Shown piece after piece: positions 1 through 63,945 of a DNA stretch of 64,000 nucleotides. Source of the stretch: Patescibacteria group bacterium (lineage in GTDB: Bacteria > Patescibacteriota > Patescibacteriia > UBA9934 > GWF2-40-263); contig DATDUW010000038.1 in the NCBI GenBank assembly GCA_035290185.1, positions 233 to 64,232 of the forward strand, read 5' to 3'. The notes below the pieces were generated by a model. The model was not told the origin of the DNA. It did no database searches and saw only the letters and a list, made by a program, of their open reading frames with translations. Position 1 is the first letter of the stretch, and each line of letters opens with the position of its first letter. The translations under genes were made by a program, and so were the position numbers.

Positions 1-3000
1 GGAGCGACCTTTTATCTGGACAATGTACAACTGAAGGCAGCGCAGGAAAACAGAACGCTTGTAAAGGATTCATGGACCACCCCTTCGGTTTGCGACCAGA
101 CGCCGGCTGGAACGGCGGCACCGCAGTATTATCTTGGTTGTGAAGCCTATACAGATGAAACAAGGACCCAAACCCCCCTCTATCAGTTCCGCCAGCTTTG
201 TTCCGAATCCAAGGTGGGATGTTCGGCTTTTTTTGCAACGCAAAACGACGGGACGCCCCACGAACGGGTCTTCAATGCCACCTGTTCTCTTGGTGCGGAC
301 GTCGTCACAACTCCGACGCCCTGTGTTGTTAACGCCATTTCGGTTTGTACCGTTCCGTCGGGTAGTAATCGCTGTCTTTTCTCCTGGGATGCGCCTTTGT
401 CGCGGCCCTTGCCGGCTCAGGTGACCTTTGGTCCTGAAACAGTTGTGGTATCCGCAGATCAGGCCGTGTATCTGGTTGCGAATGAGTCGGCTTCCTGTTC
501 ACAGGGCGAAGCAGGATGTACGGAACTCGGAACGCCAGTTTTTTCTCAGGATCAAAGCGTTGTGACGGATTTTACTTCCGCTTCATTTTTGAACCTTCCG
601 GATACCTATGGAACAATTCTGTGTTCGGACGAGGACCTTTTTTGTGCTGCTTGGGCTTCGACCCAGGACGGGACGTTCTATTTTAAAGACCCGAAAGATC
701 GGACGTGCGAATACAGAACAGGAGTAAGTTTGGGCGGCAAGACCTATTCCGGATGGTTTCAGAACGGTACAACGGATTTTTGTTATGGGTCGGGAACCTG
801 TTCGGAAGACGCAAGTGTTGTCTGTACTGATGATGCTGTCTGTGTTGAGGCCGGAGCCGGATCGTGCACGGTTGCATCCGGGACCTATTTGCGCAATGGA
901 AATGAGTCCGGTCTTTGGCACAATGGCGATGCGGCGTACGCTGGTTGGGCTGGTGCCTGTCCGGAACAAGCTGATCTGTGTACGGAATTTTCGGATCCTC
1001 TCGATACAGCCGGAGGGGAGCGCGCAGAAGGGAACGCCTATTTTTATCTGGACAATGAAAAATCTTCCGGACAGAAGTCTTTGACTTCCGGCACGTCCGT
1101 TTCTTGCGGGGGTGCGGTCAGTCTCCGTGAAGGGTGCGTTCTCTTTGAGGATCACTCGAATCCGTCACTCCTGTACGCGTCTTCGCCAAGCCTGCTCGTT
1201 TCTGAGCGCGCGGACCGCCTGTTCGGAGGCGTTCCAGGTTCGCTTCAGACTCCTGTCTCCTGTCCGGACGGAGGAAGGCTTCGATTGGCAGATCAGACCG
1301 TGGTCGACGTCTGTACAAGTCGCTGTGCGTATGCGGTTTCGTCCGGGACGTCCCTGTCTGATGTCTCGCTTGCGGTCGGGCCTGTGAAAGCGGGAATCGC
1401 TACCTATTACGGCCGTGCCTGTCTTGAAAACCGTGAATGTCCTTCCGTTGTCACGGCCGCGGGAACGGAAACATCTGGTACGTGCGAGACGGTCGATTCT
1501 GCCTATGCTTTCCAGAATGACACGAATCGAATTCTGCGTATTTCTCGGGACCGGACCTGTGCAGAATGGCTTGCGTGTGACAGTCTCCAGCACGCGTGGG
1601 ATGAAACAAGGGCGAATTGGCGAACCGTCTGCGAATCCGTCCAGACCTGCAACGCCTACGCCACTTCAAGCGAAAATGGTTTCTGTTCTAGTTGGGTGGA
1701 AAAGGAACCGGTCATTTTGAATGCCAGCGTTTATTCGGCCCGCGACGTTTCCTGGTATGGATTGGAATCTTCTGGATACGCGATTCCGAATCAGCTGCCC
1801 ATTCCATTCTACCGTCAGGTGAATATTCATCCATCCACGGCGTGCGTTCAGAAAGACGGAACGCCTATTTTGGACGGAGAAACTGGCGACCTGGTTCCCT
1901 GTGACGCAAACAACGACTGCTCAGGAGACGGCGGAACCTGTTCGGAAGTGGCAGGAGATTATCGGTTGGCGTACGTGGCCGGGTCGTGCAGTGGGGAAAA
2001 TGGCGCGGCGTGCCGCGTCGGATTCTGTACGGAAAGCGGCCGTCTTTGCAACGGAACGTTTGACTGCGAAGAAGGGGAAAAATGTACGGTTGGATTTTGC
2101 GAAACGACCAAGCCGGATTCTTTTTGCGAGATATCGGATGATTGTGGCAACGGCTTCAATGAGTGCCACAACGGCGTTTGTGTGGATACAAAGACAAGTA
2201 AGGACGATACGCTCGAAACATGCACGGAAGATGCTGATTGTACGCTGGCGGACCTGGATGGAGATGGTGAAGCGGATCCGGAATATACCTCCTGCATTCC
2301 TGGCGCTCTGGCTAAAAGCGGTGTTTGCTATAACAGTAGTTGTCTTACGGGGATTGATGGTAATCCTCTCAACCTCGACGCAGCCGAGGGTGAATCCTGC
2401 CGCGGGTACCCAGATGCCCTTGCGCCTTTCCCAACACAGATCGTAAAAACATGGACAGATCCGTCAAGCGGCAGCGGTGCCTCAACGCCTTCGCTGACGG
2501 CTTCGGATATCAATACAACGGATGAATTGGACGCCATTCCATCCGAGTACATTTCCGGTTTCCCAGAGGTGCCCACCTGCAGTCCTGTTTTGGAAGGTTC
2601 CGGTGCTGCCTTGACCGACGGCTGTGTCTGTTCTTATGACAAGGCGGAATACGGCAAGGGTGCACAGGTTCGCTATTATCCTCCTGGGACATCGAAAGAC
2701 AAGATTCTTCCCGGCATTTGTATAGGTGGGAGTGCAGAGGGTCAAAAATGTGAAAACAACGCCCAGTGTCAGGATGCGGATGGCGCGGGAACCGATGGAA
2801 CCTGTGGAACACTGACAGGGAAAGACCGCTTTATTGGCTGGAAAGGATTCTGTATTGAACGGGACACCTCTATTCAGCTTTTTGGAAGTCCAAATGAGGA
2901 GGATCGTGCCTGCCTTACCTGGCTTCCTGTAGATCAGTTGAAGGGTTCCACGGACATGTATGCGAAGAGCGTGGAGGCGGGTTATCCGCTTGCAGACACT

Positions 3001-5391
3001 TATTATTGCACGGAGGTCGGTTATTACGCCGATCTCTATCCAACGGGGACGCAGTTTGATGCGGAAACCGGCTTGCCCAAGGATAATATTGATTTCGCCT
3101 GTGCCGCAACCGATGCGTCAGGATGCGATTGGCCGGAATATGGAAGTTGTGAAAAAAATGTCTATTGTCCAAAAGGCTATACGGCAGTTGTGGGATCCTG
3201 CGATAACGGAAGTCTAGGAAATGCGGAAAAAAATCCCACGGACAGTTATTGTGATTCTGGAGATCAGTTGGAGGATCAGGTTGTTGCTTCCGGAAAAACG
3301 ATGTTTCTCTATGAAGGAAAAGGGAGATCGGATGATTGTCCTTACTTCTGTATTCCAGACGGGAGCAGACACTTGGAGGGAGATGATGCGGGGAAGAGCT
3401 GTCTTGGAGATCTTCCAGGCTTTGGTTTGACCAATACCAACGGAACCGTTTACTACAAAGTCGGTGATTTGAGTGCGTATCAGGACGGGCTTTCCTATGC
3501 GCAAAAATTTAGAGACTGCATTGTGCGAGGCGTGCCTCTTGCCGGACAGAGCGAATTTGCCACGGATTGGATGAGCGGGGATGTTTTTGATGGTTTTAGC
3601 AGCGGGGGTTATGGCTATAAGATTCTTGAGGATTCAAATTCCCCAGGAGAGCACTATGCTTTTGGTCTTGCCCATCGTTCTGTTGGCTCGCTCATTGGAA
3701 GGTGTACGTCCTTTTCTAGCAAATACCCTGGAATTCCAAGTTCTGAAGGAATAGAAGGAACACCATGTCAGTCTTCCCAAGATTGTCCTTACAAAGATTC
3801 CTGTACGGATCCGAATGATAGTGGTTGTGCGTTTACCACCTGCAACAAGGAACGGGCGGCCAGCGGTTCCCTCCAGGTCTATCTCGGGTGCTACGAAGCA
3901 GCCAAGGTTGCGAGTCTTGACGGGGAAATGGATCCAAACAAAGCCTGGACCAATCGGCTCTGGGAAAATCCAAACCCAGACCCTTCGGATCCGACCACAA
4001 CGCTTTCCTATCGGACATCGACCGCAACGGATTTCAGTGATGAAAAGACAAGTTACATTTATCGTCCGTCTTCCTATGCCACGCCGGACGGACGGTCTCT
4101 GTTTGAGTATTTTTCCAATGGGAAAATGGCTGGGTTTGAAAAGGATTCCTGGCCGCTTCCCGTGGAGGCATGCAAACGCGATTCCACGACCCAAGGAATG
4201 ATCGGCCTTGAAACAGCCCCGCCAGGATCCTGTTCCTTGTCTATGTATTCCTCGTATCCTTTGTCAGCCCAGTACGTCCAGGAGGGATCGACGCGTTCGA
4301 TCCTTAATGCGGAAGAAGCGCCCTATTCCTATGCTCTGGCGTTTCCGTATGAAGACATCAGTACGGAGGATGAGAAAAAAGCCATGGTCGGAGAAATAGG
4401 GTCGCAGGATGAATTCGGCAGGAGCTCGAACAAGAATCCGCGCGGCATCAAAGAGCTCCTCAACCAGCTTTTTGCCAAGGTGTACGACGTGTGGCAATTC
4501 AGTTGGAACAAAGAAGGAGGTTCCTATGTTTCGATGAAGGATGAAGGGACGTACGGCGCTGTTATCGGTCTCTCCAACGGCTCTAATCTTACATCAACGG
4601 GTGATGCACATTATGACGCTTCCGGAGATGGAACGCCTGACCCGCCCACCGTTGTTTCGGTCGGCTCCTGTTATGGGACACAGTGTTTGGAAGGGAACGA
4701 AGGCAAATTTACCGTCAATAACGTTGATGGCGATATTCTTGAGGGAACAGGCAGCCTCCATACGGTTGTGAAGTTTTATGCCTGGGCCAATCCTAACCAG
4801 ATGCCGCTCAAGAACGTGATAGTAAACTGGGGCGATGGGGATCGCGTCAACAGCGGCCCCTACACGGGCTGGGCTTGGCCAGCCGACAGTTATACGGGGA
4901 GCATTGCACCTGATAATTTTTACAAGAATCACCGTGGGCTGAAATCTCCGGGCGAATCCCAGTGTGACAACACAGACTGGGGCCGCACCAGCGCGGCCTG
5001 TGAAACAGCTTACTTCAGCTTTGAGCACACGTACCGCTGCTCGAATGATTTGCTGGAGTCCCTCCCTGAATGTCGGCTTGCCGATGATGGAACAAAACGA
5101 TTGTTAAATTCTCCTTGTACCGGAGGTGTTGTCATGGGAGGGGAAGGAGAATGTGTCTTCCAGCCGCGTGTGTTTGTGAAGGATAACTGGGGATGGTGTA
5201 CGGGGTACTGTAACTCGAATTCTGAGGACAATACGGAACAGTGTTATGGAATGTATGAATGTTCTCCGCAGTATTGTCCGAGTACAGGGACGGATGGAAA
5301 TACTAAATCGGGAAAGTGTGGGGACGGAGATTCTGGAGGAATTTCAAATCCTTGGGTAAATTTTGACGGTTATATTCTTGTAGAAAAATAG
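1..5391 (+). CDS. giant cysteine-rich secreted/surface protein, 5' end upstream of window (1796 codons visible)
   Basis: Frame 1 is open from nt 1 to the TAG at 5389-5391, so the Met at 214 is internal. Cys spacing is very dense (e.g. CRVGFCTESGRLCNGTFDCEEGEKCTVGFCETT). There are DGDG-type acidic stretches and a C-terminal VNWGDGD PKD-like segment. A hairpin terminator follows. Confidence 0.8.
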   Translation, partial: GATFYLDNVQLKAAQENRTLVKDSWTTPSVCDQTPAGTAAPQYYLGCEAYTDETRTQTPLYQFRQLCSESKVGCSAFFATQNDGTPHERVFNATCSLGADVVTTPTPCVVNAISVCTVPSGSNRCLFSWDAPLSRPLPAQVTFGPETVVVSADQAVYLVANESASCSQGEAGCTELGTPVFSQDQSVVTDFTSASFLNLPDTYGTILCSDEDLFCAAWASTQDGTFYFKDPKDRTCEYRTGVSLGGKTYSGWFQNGTTDFCYGSGTCSEDASVVCTDDAVCVEAGAGSCTVASGTYLRNGNESGLWHNGDAAYAGWAGACPEQADLCTEFSDPLDTAGGERAEGNAYFYLDNEKSSGQKSLTSGTSVSCGGAVSLREGCVLFEDHSNPSLLYASSPSLLVSERADRLFGGVPGSLQTPVSCPDGGRLRLADQTVVDVCTSRCAYAVSSGTSLSDVSLAVGPVKAGIATYYGRACLENRECPSVVTAAGTETSGTCETVDSAYAFQNDTNRILRISRDRTCAEWLACDSLQHAWDETRANWRTVCESVQTCNAYATSSENGFCSSWVEKEPVILNASVYSARDVSWYGLESSGYAIPNQLPIPFYRQVNIHPSTACVQKDGTPILDGETGDLVPCDANNDCSGDGGTCSEVAGDYRLAYVAGSCSGENGAACRVGFCTESGRLCNGTFDCEEGEKCTVGFCETTKPDSFCEISDDCGNGFNECHNGVCVDTKTSKDDTLETCTEDADCTLADLDGDGEADPEYTSCIPGALAKSGVCYNSSCLTGIDGNPLNLDAAEGESCRGYPDALAPFPTQIVKTWTDPSSGSGASTPSLTASDINTTDELDAIPSEYISGFPEVPTCSPVLEGSGAALTDGCVCSYDKAEYGKGAQVRYYPPGTSKDKILPGICIGGSAEGQKCENNAQCQDADGAGTDGTCGTLTGKDRFIGWKGFCIERDTSIQLFGSPNEEDRACLTWLPVDQLKGSTDMYAKSVEAGYPLADTYYCTEVGYYADLYPTGTQFDAETGLPKDNIDFACAATDASGCDWPEYGSCEKNVYCPKGYTAVVGSCDNGSLGNAEKNPTDSYCDSGDQLEDQVVASGKTMFLYEGKGRSDDCPYFCIPDGSRHLEGDDAGKSCLGDLPGFGLTNTNGTVYYKVGDLSAYQDGLSYAQKFRDCIVRGVPLAGQSEFATDWMSGDVFDGFSSGGYGYKILEDSNSPGEHYAFGLAHRSVGSLIGRCTSFSSKYPGIPSSEGIEGTPCQSSQDCPYKDSCTDPNDSGCAFTTCNKERAASGSLQVYLGCYEAAKVASLDGEMDPNKAWTNRLWENPNPDPSDPTTTLSYRTSTATDFSDEKTSYIYRPSSYATPDGRSLFEYFSNGKMAGFEKDSWPLPVEACKRDSTTQGMIGLETAPPGSCSLSMYSSYPLSAQYVQEGSTRSILNAEEAPYSYALAFPYEDISTEDEKKAMVGEIGSQDEFGRSSNKNPRGIKELLNQLFAKVYDVWQFSWNKEGGSYVSMKDEGTYGAVIGLSNGSNLTSTGDAHYDASGDGTPDPPTVVSVGSCYGTQCLEGNEGKFTVNNVDGDILEGTGSLHTVVKFYAWANPNQMPLKNVIVNWGDGDRVNSGPYTGWAWPADSYTGSIAPDNFYKNHRGLKSPGESQCDNTDWGRTSAACETAYFSFEHTYRCSNDLLESLPECRLADDGTKRLLNSPCTGGVVMGGEGECVFQPRVFVKDNWGWCTGYCNSNSEDNTEQCYGMYECSPQYCPSTGTDGNTKSGKCGDGDSGGISNPWVNFDGYILVEK

Positions 5392-21509: not shown

Positions 21510-21746
21510 TTACAGAAGATGCCGTTTGGCAAAAGCCCTGCCGGATCCGGTCTTCAAATACTTTTCAAACCGCGCAGCTGCCTCTTTCGTCGGAAATACG
21601 CAATGCCACTTCAAATGAAGGAGGCGACCTTTTGTCATAGGAGTAAGTCCTTGCTCGTGTTCTACCATTCGACGATCAAGATCATGGGTAAGCCCCGTAT
21701 AGTGGAAATCCTTTGTTTCATTTTCCAAAAGGTACACGTAGTACAT
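21510..21746 (-). CDS. small GIY-YIG nuclease-family protein (78 aa)
   Basis: YYVYLL..YTGLTHDLDRRMVEHEQG..EKYLKTGSGRAFAKRHL. GGAGAGG lies upstream. The gene is 111 nt downstream of tRNA-Ser(GCU) on the same strand. Confidence 0.85.
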   Translation of the reverse strand: MYYVYLLENETKDFHYTGLTHDLDRRMVEHEQGLTPMTKGRLLHLKWHCVFPTKEAAARFEKYLKTGSGRAFAKRHLL

Positions 21747-21857
21747 ATCCTCTCCAGGAGATCCGACTCAAAAATATACCTTTTTATGGTATCGTCCTGC
21801 CTTGTTTTTTCGTCTAGTCGTTTACACACCGAAGCCCCATCCTATGGGGCGAAGGTG

Positions 21858-21951
21858 TGGCGGAGAGAGAGGGATTCGAACCCTCGCGCCGGGAAAACCC
21901 CGACCTAGGAGATTAGCAATCTCCCCCCTTCAGCCTCTTGGGTACCTCTCC
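21858..21951 (-). tRNA. tRNA-Ser (anticodon GCU), CCA encoded
   Basis: Hand-folded cloverleaf: acceptor GGAGAGG/TCTCTCC, anticodon arm GGAGA-TTGCTAA-TCTCC, long variable arm, T-arm GAGGG-TTCGAAT-CCCTC, G-CCA. Confidence 0.9.
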
Positions 21952-22624: not shown

Positions 22625-22712
22625 GGAGAGGTGTCCGAGTGGTTTAAGGAGCCAGTCTTGAAAACTGGTATACCGCAAGGTATCAAGGGTTCGAATCCCT
22701 TTCTCTCCGCCA
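22625..22712 (+). tRNA. tRNA-Ser (anticodon UGA), CCA encoded
   Basis: Acceptor GGAGAGG/TCTCTCC, anticodon arm CCAGT-CTTGAAA-ACTGG, long variable arm, T-arm AAGGG-TTCGAAT-CCCTT, G-CCA. Confidence 0.9.
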
Positions 22713-22803
22713 TCGGTCCGCTGAAGCGGACCTACGACGTGACGAATCCGCATGTGTGGTCCGCGAAAGCGACCGGTGACTCCGTCGTGTATGGTTAAAT
22801 TCT

Positions 22804-23037
22804 ATGCATTATGTCTACAGTTTGAAGTGTCGGGACGGATGGTACATAGGGTGTACAAACGATTTGAAGGACCGACTTCAAAGACATGAAAGAGGAGATG
22901 TTCCGGCGACAAAAGGTCGTCTACCGGTAAAGCTGGAATTTTATTTTGGGATAGAAGATAAAATCAAAGCCTTTCAATTTGAAAAATATCTGAAATCCGG
23001 ATCTGGAAGGGCCTTCATAAACAAGCATTTAGCTTAA
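22804..23037 (+). CDS. small GIY-YIG nuclease-family protein (77 aa)
   Basis: HYVYSL..YIGCTNDLKDRLQRHERG..EKYLKSGSGRAFINKHL. It is a paralogue of 21510..21746 and lies 91 nt downstream of tRNA-Ser(UGA). Confidence 0.85.
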   Translation: MHYVYSLKCRDGWYIGCTNDLKDRLQRHERGDVPATKGRLPVKLEFYFGIEDKIKAFQFEKYLKSGSGRAFINKHLA

Positions 23038-29386: not shown

Positions 29387-31159
29387 ATGCGTCCGCTCCT
29401 CGAGGCAGCAAATTTGGAAAAGGCCTATGGCCGGCAGATCGTTCTACAGGGGCTTTCTTTTATCGTTCCTGAAGATGCTCATATTGCGCTTATTGGTCGC
29501 AACGGTTCGGGAAAAACAACGCTTTTACGCCTCATGGCTGGCGATGAAGAAGCGGACCGTGGGATGGTCCGGCCTATGTCCTGGACGCGACTGGGGGTTC
29601 TCAGACAACAGGAAGAACTGCCCAATGATCGGATGACGGTTGATTATCTTTCCCAGGATAGCGGAAAGCCGCCATGGGAATGTGCCAAACTTGCAGCACG
29701 GTTCGGATTGCATCCAACGGATTTGGCCCTGGCGCCAGCTGCGCTTTCCGGCGGGTATCAGATGCGCGTGAAGCTCGTTCGTGTCTTGCTTGAAGATCCA
29801 ACCCTTCTTCTTTTGGACGAGCCTGTAAACTATTTGGATCTTCCAACCCTTCTTCTTCTCGAAGCCTTTCTCAAGGAGTATGCCGGATCCTTCGTGATGA
29901 CGTCCCACGACCGTGAGATTCTCCAAAACGTTTGTACGACGACATGGGATCTTTCGAAAGGCAAATTGATAACATTCCCAGGCGATGTCGAAACGTATTT
30001 GGATTGGAAAGAGGAGCAGGCCGAATATGCGCGACGGACAAATAAACGTCTGCGCAAGGAAATGGCGGATGCTCAGGCCTTTGCCGATCGTTTTCGCGCC
30101 AAAGCCAGTCAGGCCACGCGGGCCCAGAGCAAACTTAAACACATTACCAAGCTGCGGGCACGGTTGCGTTCGTTGGACGATGATCTCCCGACCGTTGCCT
30201 TTCGTATCCCGTGTCCGTTGGTTATTCCCGGAACAGCTTTGCGCTGTGAGGGGCTTGGTGTTGGATACGGAGATAAAATAGTCGCACAGAATATTTCGTT
30301 GGAGGTTCCGCGTGGCGCCAAGGTCGCGATCGTGGGCGAAAACGGTCGCGGCAAATCAACGTTACTTCGGACCCTTGCGGGTGTTCTTCCGTCGTTAGAG
30401 GGAACCATGAAGTGGTGGCATCGAGCAGACATTGGATATTTTTCGCAGCAGGATAATGAAACGCTGTCAGGCCAGGAAACGGTTCTTCAAGCGCTCACAA
30501 AAGCTGCTCCACCAGATGCTTCGGCGGAACGGATTCTTGCCGCGGCCGGTGCCTTCCTGTTCCACGGCGATGATCTGGAAAAATCCTGTTCTGTTCTTTC
30601 CGGAGGGGAACGGGCACGCGTGCGTTTGGCTCGTTTGGTTTTGCGTCAGCACAACGTCCTTCTCCTCGATGAGCCCACAAACCACTTGGATGCGGAAACC
30701 GTAGAAATTTTGGCTCGAGCCCTGAAGGAGTATTCTGGAACCGTTTTCGTTGTCTCTCACGCCCGAACCTTTATGAATGCGCTGGCAGAGCGTATTTACG
30801 AAGTGCGAAACGGATCGGTTCGACACTTTCTTGGCACGTACGAGGAATACGTCTGCGAACTCACGGAATTTACCGAACAGTCTACGCATGAGCCAGTGGT
30901 CGTCTCAAGCTCGGCGGACATAGATCGTCGCGAACACTTTCTTCGCAATCGTGAACGTCGGCGGTTGCAGAAAAAGTTGGAGGAAAAAATAGATCGGTTG
31001 GAAAAGGAGAAGAGTGGAATTCTCGCGTATTTTTTCGAGAACCCGACCGACTATGCACCGGAAAAATCCATTCGGCTGGATGAAATCGGGGAAGCGTTGG
31101 ATGCGTTGGAAAAAGAGTGGTTGGGGTTGGAAGAAATGAATGACTCCACAGTACAGTAA
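29387..31159 (+). CDS. ABC-F family ATPase (two ABC domains, no TM domain)
   Basis: GRNGSGKTTLL, LSGGYQMRV and LLLDEP in the first domain. GENGRGKSTLL, LSGGERARV and LLLDEP in the second. The C-terminal tail is coiled-coil. Confidence 0.9.
   Translation: MRPLLEAANLEKAYGRQIVLQGLSFIVPEDAHIALIGRNGSGKTTLLRLMAGDEEADRGMVRPMSWTRLGVLRQQEELPNDRMTVDYLSQDSGKPPWECAKLAARFGLHPTDLALAPAALSGGYQMRVKLVRVLLEDPTLLLLDEPVNYLDLPTLLLLEAFLKEYAGSFVMTSHDREILQNVCTTTWDLSKGKLITFPGDVETYLDWKEEQAEYARRTNKRLRKEMADAQAFADRFRAKASQATRAQSKLKHITKLRARLRSLDDDLPTVAFRIPCPLVIPGTALRCEGLGVGYGDKIVAQNISLEVPRGAKVAIVGENGRGKSTLLRTLAGVLPSLEGTMKWWHRADIGYFSQQDNETLSGQETVLQALTKAAPPDASAERILAAAGAFLFHGDDLEKSCSVLSGGERARVRLARLVLRQHNVLLLDEPTNHLDAETVEILARALKEYSGTVFVVSHARTFMNALAERIYEVRNGSVRHFLGTYEEYVCELTEFTEQSTHEPVVVSSSADIDRREHFLRNRERRRLQKKLEEKIDRLEKEKSGILAYFFENPTDYAPEKSIRLDEIGEALDALEKEWLGLEEMNDSTVQ
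31064..31122 (+). repeat. 59-bp direct repeat, copy 1 (inside the ABC-F 3' end)
   Basis: AAATCCATTCGGCTGGATGAAATCGGGGAAGCGTTGGATGCGTTGGAAAAAGAGTGGTT is identical to 36221-36279. Confidence 0.95.
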
Positions 31160-31271
31160 AAAATTAACAACACCCTGGATTTAACGCATTGTCATTCTGA
31201 AGGAGTCTGTTTTCTTGCGACGACTGAAGAATCTTTTTTTGAACCAGGAATCCTTAGAAGGTAAAGCTAAA

Positions 31272-61946: not shown

Positions 61947-62720
61947 ATGATACTTGTAAGGGCAAGACTGTATAAGGGAGTTGGCGTCGGCGACGAACAG
62001 CCTGATGTGGGTCAAGCTGTCGTTGTCGTGGATGGAAAGGGATTGTCCATTTCCTATTTTCAAGGGAGGATTTTTGCTTTCTTGGGGGAGGAGATGATAA
62101 ATGTAGAGATTTGGCGTCGGTGCAGCGCCGAGTCCTTCGGGTTCGTGAACCTTCCGGAATCGGCCGAGCTGACATTGGATGAAAATGCGGTGGCCGTTCC
62201 TTATCGAGGGGAGGAGGGTTTGGCAAGCGCGGTTGTGAAAGGAATGGTTCTCTTGACTCAGAGGAATGCGGCGGCCAAAAAGAAGGGGGGACCCGTCGCG
62301 GTTGGGGTTGGAAAAGAGGTAGAATTTCTTGGCGTGGGGCAGGAGTTTTTGCCAGACGGGGGTCGGACGGGAGATGTCATCGTCCTCGTTCGTTCTTTCT
62401 GTCTTCATTATTATTCCACCACCGTTGGCTTCCTCCACGGAGAGACGGTGTGGAATCTTTCCACAGGGTCGATGAAGATCAAGGCTAGGACATGGTTTTC
62501 TTTGGCGGATGGTATGAGTCTTCTGTTAAAGGAAACCCCCATTTCTTTGGAAGACGTGGGGTTTCTGAAGCACTGGCTCAACACTCCGGCTTCTGTGGTT
62601 GCGATTCCCGACACTCCGGTCGGGCGTGTCCTGGTTGCTCTTCTCCTTCAAGAGAAGGGTTTTACAGAGTGGAAAGTCCAGGACGCGACGCGGAACGCGA
62701 GGAGTTTATGGGGTCGCTAG
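61947..62720 (+). CDS. hypothetical protein (257 aa)
   Basis: GGAGGGAGAA precedes the ATG. G enrichment at codon position 1 is strong (gtt ggc gtc ggc gac gaa...), favouring this strand over the overlapping 185-aa minus ORF. A terminator follows. Confidence 0.5.
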   Translation: MILVRARLYKGVGVGDEQPDVGQAVVVVDGKGLSISYFQGRIFAFLGEEMINVEIWRRCSAESFGFVNLPESAELTLDENAVAVPYRGEEGLASAVVKGMVLLTQRNAAAKKKGGPVAVGVGKEVEFLGVGQEFLPDGGRTGDVIVLVRSFCLHYYSTTVGFLHGETVWNLSTGSMKIKARTWFSLADGMSLLLKETPISLEDVGFLKHWLNTPASVVAIPDTPVGRVLVALLLQEKGFTEWKVQDATRNARSLWGR

Positions 62721-62742
62721 AGAGATCAGAGGAGGAACCTTG

Positions 62743-62779
62743 GCTCGGGAATCGTGATGGTTTCCCGGGCCGTTTTTTG
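62743..62779 (+). terminator. intrinsic terminator
   Basis: GGCTCGGGAA-N10-TTCCCGGGCC-G-TTTTTT. Confidence 0.65.
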
Positions 62780-62948
62780 TTTATCCGTTGGATTTTGTGT
62801 TTGTAGAGCGATTTCGTGGTAGGATTTGAACGAAGAAGTTTTAGTCGGGGACAAGATTCTTTTTCAGGACAATAACGATCCGAATCACGCCGTGTGTGTG
62901 AAGGTGGTTGATATTGAAATTGTTCCGACGTTTGATAATTCCCCCTTT

Positions 62949-63011
62949 CGTCATTGCGAGGAGGGGTCCACCTTTGTAAAAGTTGTCGGTGGACGACAAC
63001 AAAGCAATCTC
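62949..63011. repeat. left flank repeats A and B of the GIY-YIG cassette
   Basis: A is CGTCATTGCGAGG (62949-62961). B is GACGACAACAAAGCAATCTC (62992-63011). Their inverted partners lie at 63315-63360. Confidence 0.7.
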
Positions 63012-63015
63012 TTTT

Positions 63016-63306
63016 ATGTCTCGTACTTTCTGGGTTTACATTTTGACCAATCAAACTCATTCTGTTCTTTATACGGGGATGACGGGGAATTTACCGAGGC
63101 GTGTTTACGAGCACAAAGAAAAATTAGTTCCTGGATTTACAGCTAAGTATCAAGCCACGGAGTTGGTTCATGCCGAGCCGTATAATACAGCCACAGAAGC
63201 CATTGCCAGAGAGAAACAGATTAAGGGGGGTTCGCGAGCGAAGAAGATAGTGTTGATTCAAGAAAATAATCCAGAGTGGAAGGATTTATCGTTTGATTTT
63301 GTTTGA
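63016..63306 (+). CDS. GIY-YIG nuclease-family protein (UPF0213-like, 96 aa)
   Basis: FWVYILTNQTHSVLYTGMTGNLPRRVYEHKEK...AIAREKQIKGGSRAKK. Confidence 0.85.
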   Translation: MSRTFWVYILTNQTHSVLYTGMTGNLPRRVYEHKEKLVPGFTAKYQATELVHAEPYNTATEAIAREKQIKGGSRAKKIVLIQENNPEWKDLSFDFV

Positions 63307-63314
63307 AAAGACGA

Positions 63315-63360
63315 GAGATTGCTTCGTCGCCGCAGAGTGACGAGCGTCTTCGCAATGACG
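63315..63360. repeat. right flank repeats B' and A' of the GIY-YIG cassette
   Basis: B' is GAGATTGCTTCGTC (63315-63328), the reverse complement of B minus a 6-nt insert. A' is CTTCGCAATGACG (63348-63360), the reverse complement of A at 12 of 13 positions. Confidence 0.7.
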
Positions 63361-63381
63361 AGTTTTTATAAATAAATTTGT

Positions 63382-63945
63382 ATGAAAACCGCCTATCTGA
63401 TCCATGGCTGGGGATGCAAACCAGAAGCAGGATTCCGTCCATGGCTGAAAGAACAGCTCGAAGCCTGTGGATACAACGTCGTCCTACCGGTCATGCCGGA
63501 TCCGAATGTTCCACTTTTTGAAACCTGGATTTCATATCTGCAATTCGTGATTGCTGATCTGGATGAAGAAACCGTTCTTGTGGGCCACAGTTTGGGAGGC
63601 CTGGCCATTTTGCATTTCCTCCAGCGTCTGTCCGAAGGCGTCCGTGTTGGGAAGGTCGTTCTTGTCGCGCCCGTCATAGATGAAATTATGGGTTTATCCG
63701 AGGAAGAAAAATCATTAGCCAAACCCTGGCTCGAAATGCCGATTGACGCTGAAAAAATTAGGCGGTCGGCAAAGGAGATTATCGGATTTTTTTCCGACAA
63801 TGATCCATGGATTCCCCTCCGAAGCGAGCAGGTATTCAGGGAACGGTATGGCGCAAAGACGTTTGTCGAGCATGATAAAAAACATTGGGGAGATCATGAC
63901 GGAGTAACGGAAGTGCGAAGCGTGCTGGAGGCGATTTTTGGTTAG
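63382..63945 (+). CDS. alpha/beta-fold serine hydrolase (YdeN/RBBP9-like)
   Basis: AYLIHGWG, the nucleophile elbow GHSLGG, a C-terminal D and H (DNDPWIP, HDKKHWG), and a length of about 187 aa. Confidence 0.8.
   Translation: MKTAYLIHGWGCKPEAGFRPWLKEQLEACGYNVVLPVMPDPNVPLFETWISYLQFVIADLDEETVLVGHSLGGLAILHFLQRLSEGVRVGKVVLVAPVIDEIMGLSEEEKSLAKPWLEMPIDAEKIRRSAKEIIGFFSDNDPWIPLRSEQVFRERYGAKTFVEHDKKHWGDHDGVTEVRSVLEAIFG

Follow-up and report, generated by a model that had tools for sequence, protein, structure and literature searches.

A probable Ssn/SRM module, an ssnA-like gene between two inverted hairpin repeats, in an Uhrbacteria-like genome of the Patescibacteria

The ssnA-like gene and its flanking repeats

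The 64,000-nucleotide stretch of DNA analyzed here, referred to as the window (positions 233 to 64,232 of contig DATDUW010000038.1, assembly GCA_035290185.1, from a Patescibacteria group bacterium), includes a small gene of the GIY-YIG nuclease family bracketed by inverted repeats. The gene, which is related to ssnA of Neisseria, is located at 63016-63306 on the + strand, with its ATG at 63016 and the stop codon TGA at 63304-63306, and codes for a 96-amino acid protein. Together with the repeats it forms a module of 412 bp, very probably an Ssn/SRM module, i.e., an ssnA-like gene with its cognate hairpin repeat, the Ssn-related motif (SRM; NTS in Neisseria), present as two inverted copies.

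Four repeat segments can be read from the sequence. Upstream of the gene, segment A, CGTCATTGCGAGG, occupies nucleotides 62949-62961(+), and segment B, GACGACAACAAAGCAATCTC, nucleotides 62992-63011(+), its end being separated from the ATG by 4 nucleotides. Downstream, segment B', GAGATTGCTTCGTC, is found at 63315-63328, starting 8 nucleotides past the stop codon, and segment A', CTTCGCAATGACG, at 63348-63360, complementary to A at 12 of 13 positions. An earlier note on this DNA had given these coordinates and sequences, the 12/13 agreement between A and A', and the position of B and B' on either side of the gene, all of them correctly to the base. It had also interpreted A and B as two nested repeat families, a view that has to be replaced: A makes up the 5' half and B the 3' half of a single hairpin unit, and one copy of this unit stands on each side of the gene, the two being inverted relative to each other.

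The left unit, which holds A and B, encompasses nucleotides 62949-63011(+) and has the structure CGTC-ATTGC-GAG...-GCAAT-C-TC. Its outer stem is formed by 62953-62957 with 63004-63008 on the + strand, preceded by GTC at 62950-62952 and followed by a C at 63009. It is a somewhat degenerate copy in which ACAAA replaces the consensus CGAA and the insert is unusually long; this insert is lineage-specific and has a predicted 7-bp stem of its own (62966-62972 with 62988-62994). The right unit, at 63315-63360 on the - strand, holds B' and A', reads CGTC-ATTGC-GAA-GACGCTCGTCACTCTGCGGCGAC-GAA-GCAAT-C-TC, and is nearer to the consensus than the left one. In + strand coordinates its outer stem pairs 63352-63356 with 63318-63322, the GTC appears as GAC at 63357-63359, and the C after the stem as G at 63317.

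The Ssn/SRM system was described by Chenal et al. (Nat Commun 2025;16:2388, PMC11893778). SsnA of N. meningitidis is a 94-amino acid, single-domain GIY-YIG protein (CDD cd10448, GIY-YIG_unchar_3, the entry by which these authors delimit the family) that binds the repeat NTS, CGTCATTCCCGCGMAVGCGGGAATCYRG, solely as single-stranded DNA and in one orientation, and cuts a few nucleotides upstream of it, in the variable flank; the mutations Y6A, Y17A, and E64A abolish cleavage (PMC11893778). The published NTS has the form CGTCATTCCCGCG-MAV-GCGGGAATCYRG, in which the three bases before the palindrome weigh most for cleavage and the C after it weighs most for binding (PMC11893778). Orientation-specific cleavage restricted to single-stranded DNA was shown for four homologues, and at least one SRM was found near 71% of the homologous genes, and on both sides of 42% of them (PMC11893778). 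The Neisseria enzyme reduces transformation with repeat-bearing DNA (PMC11893778).

Pfam analysis of the window protein assigned residues 5-77 to the GIY-YIG domain (PF01541, E = 6.9e-14) and detected no further family, and no NCBIfam model matched it. Database searches found 3474 homologues, 88-117 amino acids long. In a tblastn search of 7.3 Gb the protein showed 47.8% identity, over residues 7-96, to a product encoded by the N. gonorrhoeae chromosome (E = 6e-21, below the limit of tblastn E < 1e-10 that Chenal et al. used for homology to Neisseria SsnA). Pairwise BLASTP comparison with the gonococcal ssnA product gave 48% identity with 0 gaps up to the last residue (E = 5e-31); the reference for this comparison was the gonococcal orthologue and not N. 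meningitidis SsnA itself. The gonococcal ssnA region is itself surrounded by canonical NTS. Through this gap-free alignment, Y8, Y19, and E66 of the window protein are the counterparts of Y6, Y17, and E64 in N. meningitidis SsnA; all of 30 homologues have Y19 and E66, and at least 90% of them have Y8. The gonococcal record used (L087, NZ_CP119142.1 1880219-1883488) is a 2.17-Mb chromosome filed as a plasmid, in which the closest ATG upstream (1494) is not in register with the ssnA reading frame (from 1501) and the longest open reading frame (ORF) starts from an internal TTG (1558). This ssnA copy may be disrupted or may have a different start.

The resemblance to the Ssn family thus concerns both the protein and its surroundings. 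The window protein is a single-domain GIY-YIG protein of about 95 amino acids, is 48% identical to the Neisseria product, and keeps the catalytic Tyr, Tyr, and Glu; on either side of its gene there is an oriented hairpin with GTC 5' and C 3' of the stem, and the link between repeat and gene holds across phyla. Both units have the GTC ahead of the stem and the C behind it, at the positions published as critical. The differences lie in the repeat and the host. The units of the window combine an ATTGC/GCAAT stem with a GAG/CGAA internal loop and an insert that is long and variable, and they measure 43 and 60 nucleotides from GTC to the C after the stem, whereas the Neisseria NTS is a unit of about 28 nucleotides with a continuous ATTCCCGCG stem. 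Pathogenic Neisseria carry hundreds of copies, while the repeat of the window is not amplified, and the host is an uncultured member of the Patescibacteria, a group absent from PMC11893778.

Other nuclease systems share only some of these characteristics. The REP/BIME elements with their RAYT proteins also combine a single-copy nuclease gene with inverted copies of a hairpin recognized on single-stranded DNA, arranged in alternating arrays in some genomes. However, RAYT is a tyrosine transposase of the HUH/Y1, IS200/IS605-like type, whereas the window protein is a GIY-YIG protein in which Pfam detects no tyrosine-transposase domain. The GIY-YIG homing endonucleases (I-TevI, Seg proteins) have the same catalytic fold and can be encoded by small free-standing genes, but the 96-amino acid window protein is devoid of a C-terminal DNA-binding domain, its gene lies outside any intron or phage, and the characterized Ssn relatives cut solely single-stranded DNA beside a hairpin. 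A sequence search of the PDB produced marginal matches only, to SLX1 and UPF0213, and no solved Ssn structure. UPF0213/YhbQ-type proteins (PDB 1ywl, 1zg2) are similar in size and belong to the same fold family, but their sequence similarity to the window protein is marginal (E 0.047-0.072). No hairpin repeat is known to be associated with them.

The hairpin repeat in other genomes

The comparison set consisted of 80 genome loci with 82 homologous genes which, with that of the window, make 83 genes. The loci belong to Cyanobacteriota, Chloroflexota, Ignavibacteriota, Bacteroidota, Patescibacteria, several proteobacterial classes, Elusimicrobiota, Nitrospinota, and others. The consensus of the unit is (T/C)GTC-ATTGC-GAG-[variable stem-loop, often a GCGAAGC mini-hairpin]-CGAA-GCAAT-C-TC. 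A scan defined by structure alone (GTC, a 5-nucleotide stem, its reverse complement, and then C, with nothing else required) identified 531 units in the 319 kb of loci against about 160 in shuffled sequence, the excess being due to a few stem types: ATTGC (280 units), ATTCT (40), ATGCT (14), ATCCT (12), ATTAC (9), ATCGC (7), ACCCT (5), and ATTCC (4).

Covariation was assessed by picking 5' halves with GTC-A[TC]NNN-GAR alone, blind to pairing, and then seeking the 3' half within 70 nucleotides. The matching 3' half was found for 239 of 268 ATTGC stems, 35 of 35 ATTCT, 13 of 14 ATGCT, 11 of 17 ATCCT, and all five ACCCT stems. Mismatched 3' halves were rare for these five stem types, the largest off-diagonal class being ATTGC followed by GCGATC (24/268). 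The stem is therefore kept by compensatory changes and the hairpin is real.

A covariance model (R1) was built from 30 units of other genomes. When the whole window was searched with the filters off, the right unit was the best match (29.3 bits, E = 5.7e-5) and the left unit the second (14.8 bits); the third was located at 31186-31238, and all others scored 8.5 bits or less. Over the loci and the window together the left unit scored 31.7 bits (E = 8.9e-5). In these 383 kb there were 309 matches at E <= 0.01, of which 307 were in the loci around the homologues and 2 were the flanks of the window gene. The R1-aligned matches represent 131 distinct units, and the outer helix is paired in 100% of the cells. 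With respect to covariation of the outer helix the model-fitted alignment adds little, as nearly all of the 150 best matches belong to one stem type, and the contingency of 5' and 3' halves is the better test. No Rfam family matched the region at gathering or permissive thresholds, and a literature search for the exact motif returned unrelated primer sequences only.

The third match in the window may be a solitary SRM unit of the ATTCT stem type, at 31190-31233(+), with the structure TGTC-ATTCT-GAA...GAAG-AGAAT-C (TGTCATTCTGAAGGAGTC...GACGACTGAAGAATC, followed by TTTTTTT). It is found in the intergenic gap after an ORF ending at 31159 and, with an R1 score of 13.7 bits (E = 0.35), can be considered a weak and tentative member.

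Repeat and gene occur together. A strict unit was present within 150 nucleotides of the gene in 78 of the 83 cases. The arrangement seen in the window, a + unit upstream and a - unit downstream, was the commonest (30/83); the arrangements ++ (10), -- (7), and -+ (7) were seen as well. The upstream unit typically ends 6-30 nucleotides ahead of the start codon, and the downstream unit often starts within a few nucleotides of the stop. No R1 match was found in about 15 kb from the two nearest relatives by PheT, which have no ssnA. The earlier note had assigned the repeats to the GIY-YIG gene instead of to a generic repeat family, and the occurrence of the motifs beside homologues across many phyla bears this out; the note had named confinement of the motifs to this locus, or their occurrence independently of such genes, as counting against it, and this refuting test clearly fails.

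The type of repeat also follows the protein. Pairs of proteins with the same stem type had a mean identity of 60.3%, compared with 56.6% for pairs with different types, a difference reached in 0 of 1000 permutations, and the nearest neighbor was also of the ATTCT type for 9 of the 13 proteins of that type. One Chloroflexota bin, JALZHI01, includes two ssnA paralogues, one with stems GTC-ATCCT...AGGAT-C (L033) and the other with GTC-ATTCC...GGAAT-C (L034), a hint that the same cell may harbor separate enzyme/site pairs.

Dense SRM arrays, with 14 to 25 units per 3-4 kb, surround ssnA homologues in four loci: L006 (uncultured Gammaproteobacteria), L018 (Balneolaceae), L047 (Anaerolineae), and L065. 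These arrays recall the BIME arrays around RAYT genes. The units in L006 clearly alternate in orientation with a regular 106-nucleotide spacing, and the locus has two identical copies of the gene; tandem gene copies are also found in L053. In some cases gene calls fuse a translated SRM onto the Ssn homologue, at the N-terminus of P0059 (...RHCE...EIASS...APRNDG...) or the C-terminus of P0009 (...SSLRSSG), so that translations of the repeat pollute gene calls and protein databases.

Several observations weigh against assigning the window locus to the Ssn/SRM system. The published pattern, HGTCWYN(0-2)YYVSBRHN(0-5)WNVSBRGN(0-2)RNCYNB, used as printed, matches the gonococcal NTS and matches neither unit of the window nor the common ATTGC and ATTCT units of the 80 loci. 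The pattern, built from 29 genomes in 4 phyla (PMC11893778), is a search heuristic and not a definition; we read the mismatch as a subclass of the repeat outside the pattern and not as an exclusion from the family. In addition, the left unit is degenerate, the repeat has only 2, perhaps 3, copies in 64 kb, and the enzymes with known biochemistry carry repeat types other than the ATTGC type of the window. That similar proteins tend to have the same type of repeat could be due to host phylogeny instead of co-evolution. Nearest-neighbor DNA folding predicts weak, non-significant hairpins for the window units, with z-scores of about -1.8 for the left unit on the + strand, 0.0 for the right unit on the - strand, and +1.0 for the unit at 31190, compared with -3.3 for the Neisseria NTS; the minimum free energy structure of the left unit is without the outer stem, while the fold of the right unit forms it. 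The support for the hairpin is the covariation, and not the predicted stability. Taking these points together with the evidence from the protein, the critical positions, and the association across phyla, the locus remains very likely to be an Ssn/SRM module, and as such it is a further example of the published system and not a new kind of element.

Chance, transcript structure, and mobility

That the inverted repeat arose by chance, or is a generic repetitive extragenic element with no relation to the gene, has a negligible probability. A lone 13-mer with up to 2 mismatches proves nothing, because about 1.6 such occurrences are expected by chance per 64 kb. The region 62700-63500, however, has 6 registers of a 13-nucleotide inverted repeat with up to 1 mismatch, whereas 60 dinucleotide shuffles averaged 0.2 and never exceeded 3, and the motif is missing from the rest of the window save for the weak unit at 31190. 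The decisive evidence is external: dozens of unrelated genomes, from many phyla, have both half-motifs beside homologous genes; this explanation is refuted.

It is highly improbable that the element acts at the level of RNA, either with its arms pairing in the transcript to enclose the mRNA, as the earlier note had suggested, or to stabilize it, or with each unit working as an RNA hairpin such as a 5' untranslated region regulator or a terminator. The RNA fold of 62940-63370 does pair A with A' over about 16 bp (z = -2.7), so the pairing proposed in the note is there, but such long-range pairing is automatic for any inverted repeat. The left unit, ending 4 nucleotides before the ATG, is probably within the 5' untranslated region, and a T run follows the unit at 31190; no terminator-like site was found in 62600-63500, and no Rfam family corresponds to the element. 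Moreover, units exist in all four orientation combinations, and singly or in arrays away from the gene. The GTC and the trailing C that give the unit its orientation are outside the helix and match the positions of protein recognition on single-stranded DNA, and SsnA does not bind RNA (PMC11893778). The variety of orientations, the single and arrayed units, and this lack of RNA binding speak for a DNA element.

Whether the cassette is mobile requires closer consideration. The hairpin units could be the ends of a tiny element similar to an insertion sequence, in which the GIY-YIG nuclease would serve as transposase or homing enzyme and cut single-stranded DNA at the two outer borders; we consider it unlikely that the module is autonomous in this way or was active recently. 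The architecture agrees with the idea, to the extent that the earlier note was right in seeing terminal inverted repeats, which are present at the window locus as expected of an insertion sequence. The inverted arrangement is the commonest one (30/83), the predicted cuts would fall just beyond both ends on opposite strands, and the cassette has a G+C content of about 42% compared with about 50% nearby, which is weak evidence either way. Elsewhere there are the REP/BIME-like alternating arrays of L006, L018, L047, and L065 and the tandem gene copies of L006 and L053. The authors who described the family likened 'NTS-ssnA-NTS' to an insertion sequence, compared it with REP/RAYT, and raised the hypothesis of mobility themselves (PMC11893778).

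Against this, traces of movement (additional copies, empty sites, or target-site duplications) were found neither in the window nor in the related contigs nor among the 29 loci compared. The window has one copy of the cassette. The module lies at the same site with the same neighbors in 6 of 6 related contigs, and all contigs with an identical window protein have the same arrangement; the homologue P0101, found on 24 contigs, has one genomic context throughout. The longest substring shared by the outer flanks averaged 3.41 nucleotides against 3.34 in controls (76/200 controls reaching this value or higher), i.e., there was no target-site duplication beyond chance in the 29 loci. The search for cassette-free alleles that the earlier note recommended returned none among the 6 related contigs, and the nearest PheT relatives, at 61% identity, have different genes downstream of pheT and are not syntenic, so they do not supply such an allele. 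The arrangements ++, --, and -+, which together account for 24 of the 83 genes, fit poorly with a need for fixed terminal inverted repeats. Homologues were found in 0 of 50,697 phage records and in only 4 loci among 2.9 million viral contigs (IMG/VR), and the Nostoc loci have upstream sequence in common, consistent with vertical descent. There is thus only a small chance that the SRM-ssnA-SRM cassette is, or recently was, a self-mobilizing element of a new class, with a 96-amino acid GIY-YIG nuclease as its sole 'transposase' spreading itself and solitary hairpins. On this reading the nuclease would recognize the hairpin ends on single-stranded DNA, in a manner analogous to IS200/IS605 and REP/RAYT but by means of an unrelated catalytic fold. 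If true, this would explain why one hairpin (GTC-ATTGC...GCAAT-C) is common to Patescibacteria, cyanobacteria, and proteobacteria. As it stands, the module gives the impression of a single-copy locus resident in its genome, and not of a transposon that is active.

The earlier note had also suggested that the cassette was inserted into a pre-existing gene, part of which would be the 41-amino acid peptide encoded by 62826-62948. This idea finds no support: the peptide has no credible homologue, matching only repetitive junk among 1.84 billion representative proteins, and no gene is called at 62826-62948 in the related contigs.

Farther upstream, between pheT and the module, a 257-amino acid ORF at 61947-62720(+) has no match in Pfam or NCBIfam, and its sole match in 5.8 billion protein clusters is a 143-amino acid fragment (P0121) that is 98% identical and evidently comes from the same or a near-identical genome. 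Judging by sequence, this ORF is an orphan or lineage-specific gene. It is followed by a possible terminator-like inverted repeat at 62742-62771, succeeded by TTTTTTG. The best match of the PheT encoded upstream of this ORF is 61% identical and most of the named matches are from Candidatus Uhrbacteria, making the host an Uhrbacteria-like member of the Patescibacteria. In one related metagenome contig (L083) a DDE_Tnp_1 transposase gene, at 2572-3744, is found about 1.4 kb downstream of the module, past a hydrolase gene and a pair of short ORFs; the other related contigs do not cover this stretch.

The gene is, as the earlier note had counted it, the third GIY-YIG gene of the window. The other two, at 21510-21746(-) and 22804-23037(+), code for proteins of 78 and 77 amino acids (PF01541, E of about 1e-12 and 1e-11) that are distant from the ssnA-like gene product (38% identity over 72 amino acids). 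Scans of the window detected no SRM half-motif and no R1 match near them, and they appear to belong to a different small GIY-YIG subfamily. Each adjoins a tRNA-Ser gene (21858-21951(-) and 22625-22712(+)), directly after which there is a hairpin: CACACC-GAAG-CCCCAT-CCT-ATGGGG-CGAA-GGTGTG after one, with a GAAG/CGAA internal loop that recalls the SRM loop, and GGTCCGC-TGAA-GCGGACC after the other. These hairpins are located at 21826-21860 and 22716-22733, and neither has the GTC...C frame of SRM.

Proposed activity and significance

A mechanism can be proposed for the window module on the model of the characterized Neisseria and Wolbachia enzymes; analogy with them underlies all that is predicted here about nuclease activity, about where and on which strand the protein would cut, and about its role in the cell. 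When the DNA becomes single-stranded, during uptake, replication, repair, or recombination, each unit would fold into a hairpin with the outer stem ATTGC/GCAAT, a G/A-rich internal loop, and a variable inner stem-loop. The protein would bind this hairpin in one orientation, reading the stem and the C after it, and would cleave that strand on the 5' side of the conserved GTC, at a distance of a few bases. The predicted cleavage zones on single-stranded DNA are therefore 62940-62948 on the + strand, a few nucleotides 5' of the left unit, and 63361-63370 on the - strand, a few nucleotides 5' of the right unit, so that both cuts would be placed just outside the ends of the module, on opposite strands.

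By analogy with Neisseria, the role of the module may be to modulate recombination with incoming single-stranded DNA, which is plausible for a host belonging to the Patescibacteria. A genome-wide role such as that in Neisseria is doubtful, because the 64 kb include only 2 or 3 units, and the function may equally well be local or a relic.

Modules of this kind are common in Patescibacteria, cyanobacteria, Chloroflexota, Ignavibacteria, and other groups that are not discussed in PMC11893778, represented here mostly by metagenome-assembled genomes. One subclass of the repeat dominates these groups, characterized by the ATTGC stem, the GAG/CGAA internal loop, and a variable inner hairpin that is often the GCGAAGC mini-hairpin. 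As the published pattern misses this dominant subclass, repeat counts obtained with it are too low for such genomes, and SRM counts based on it probably underestimate the repeat outside the Proteobacteria. The covarying stem, which tracks protein similarity, offers ready natural enzyme/site pairs for tools that cut single-stranded DNA.

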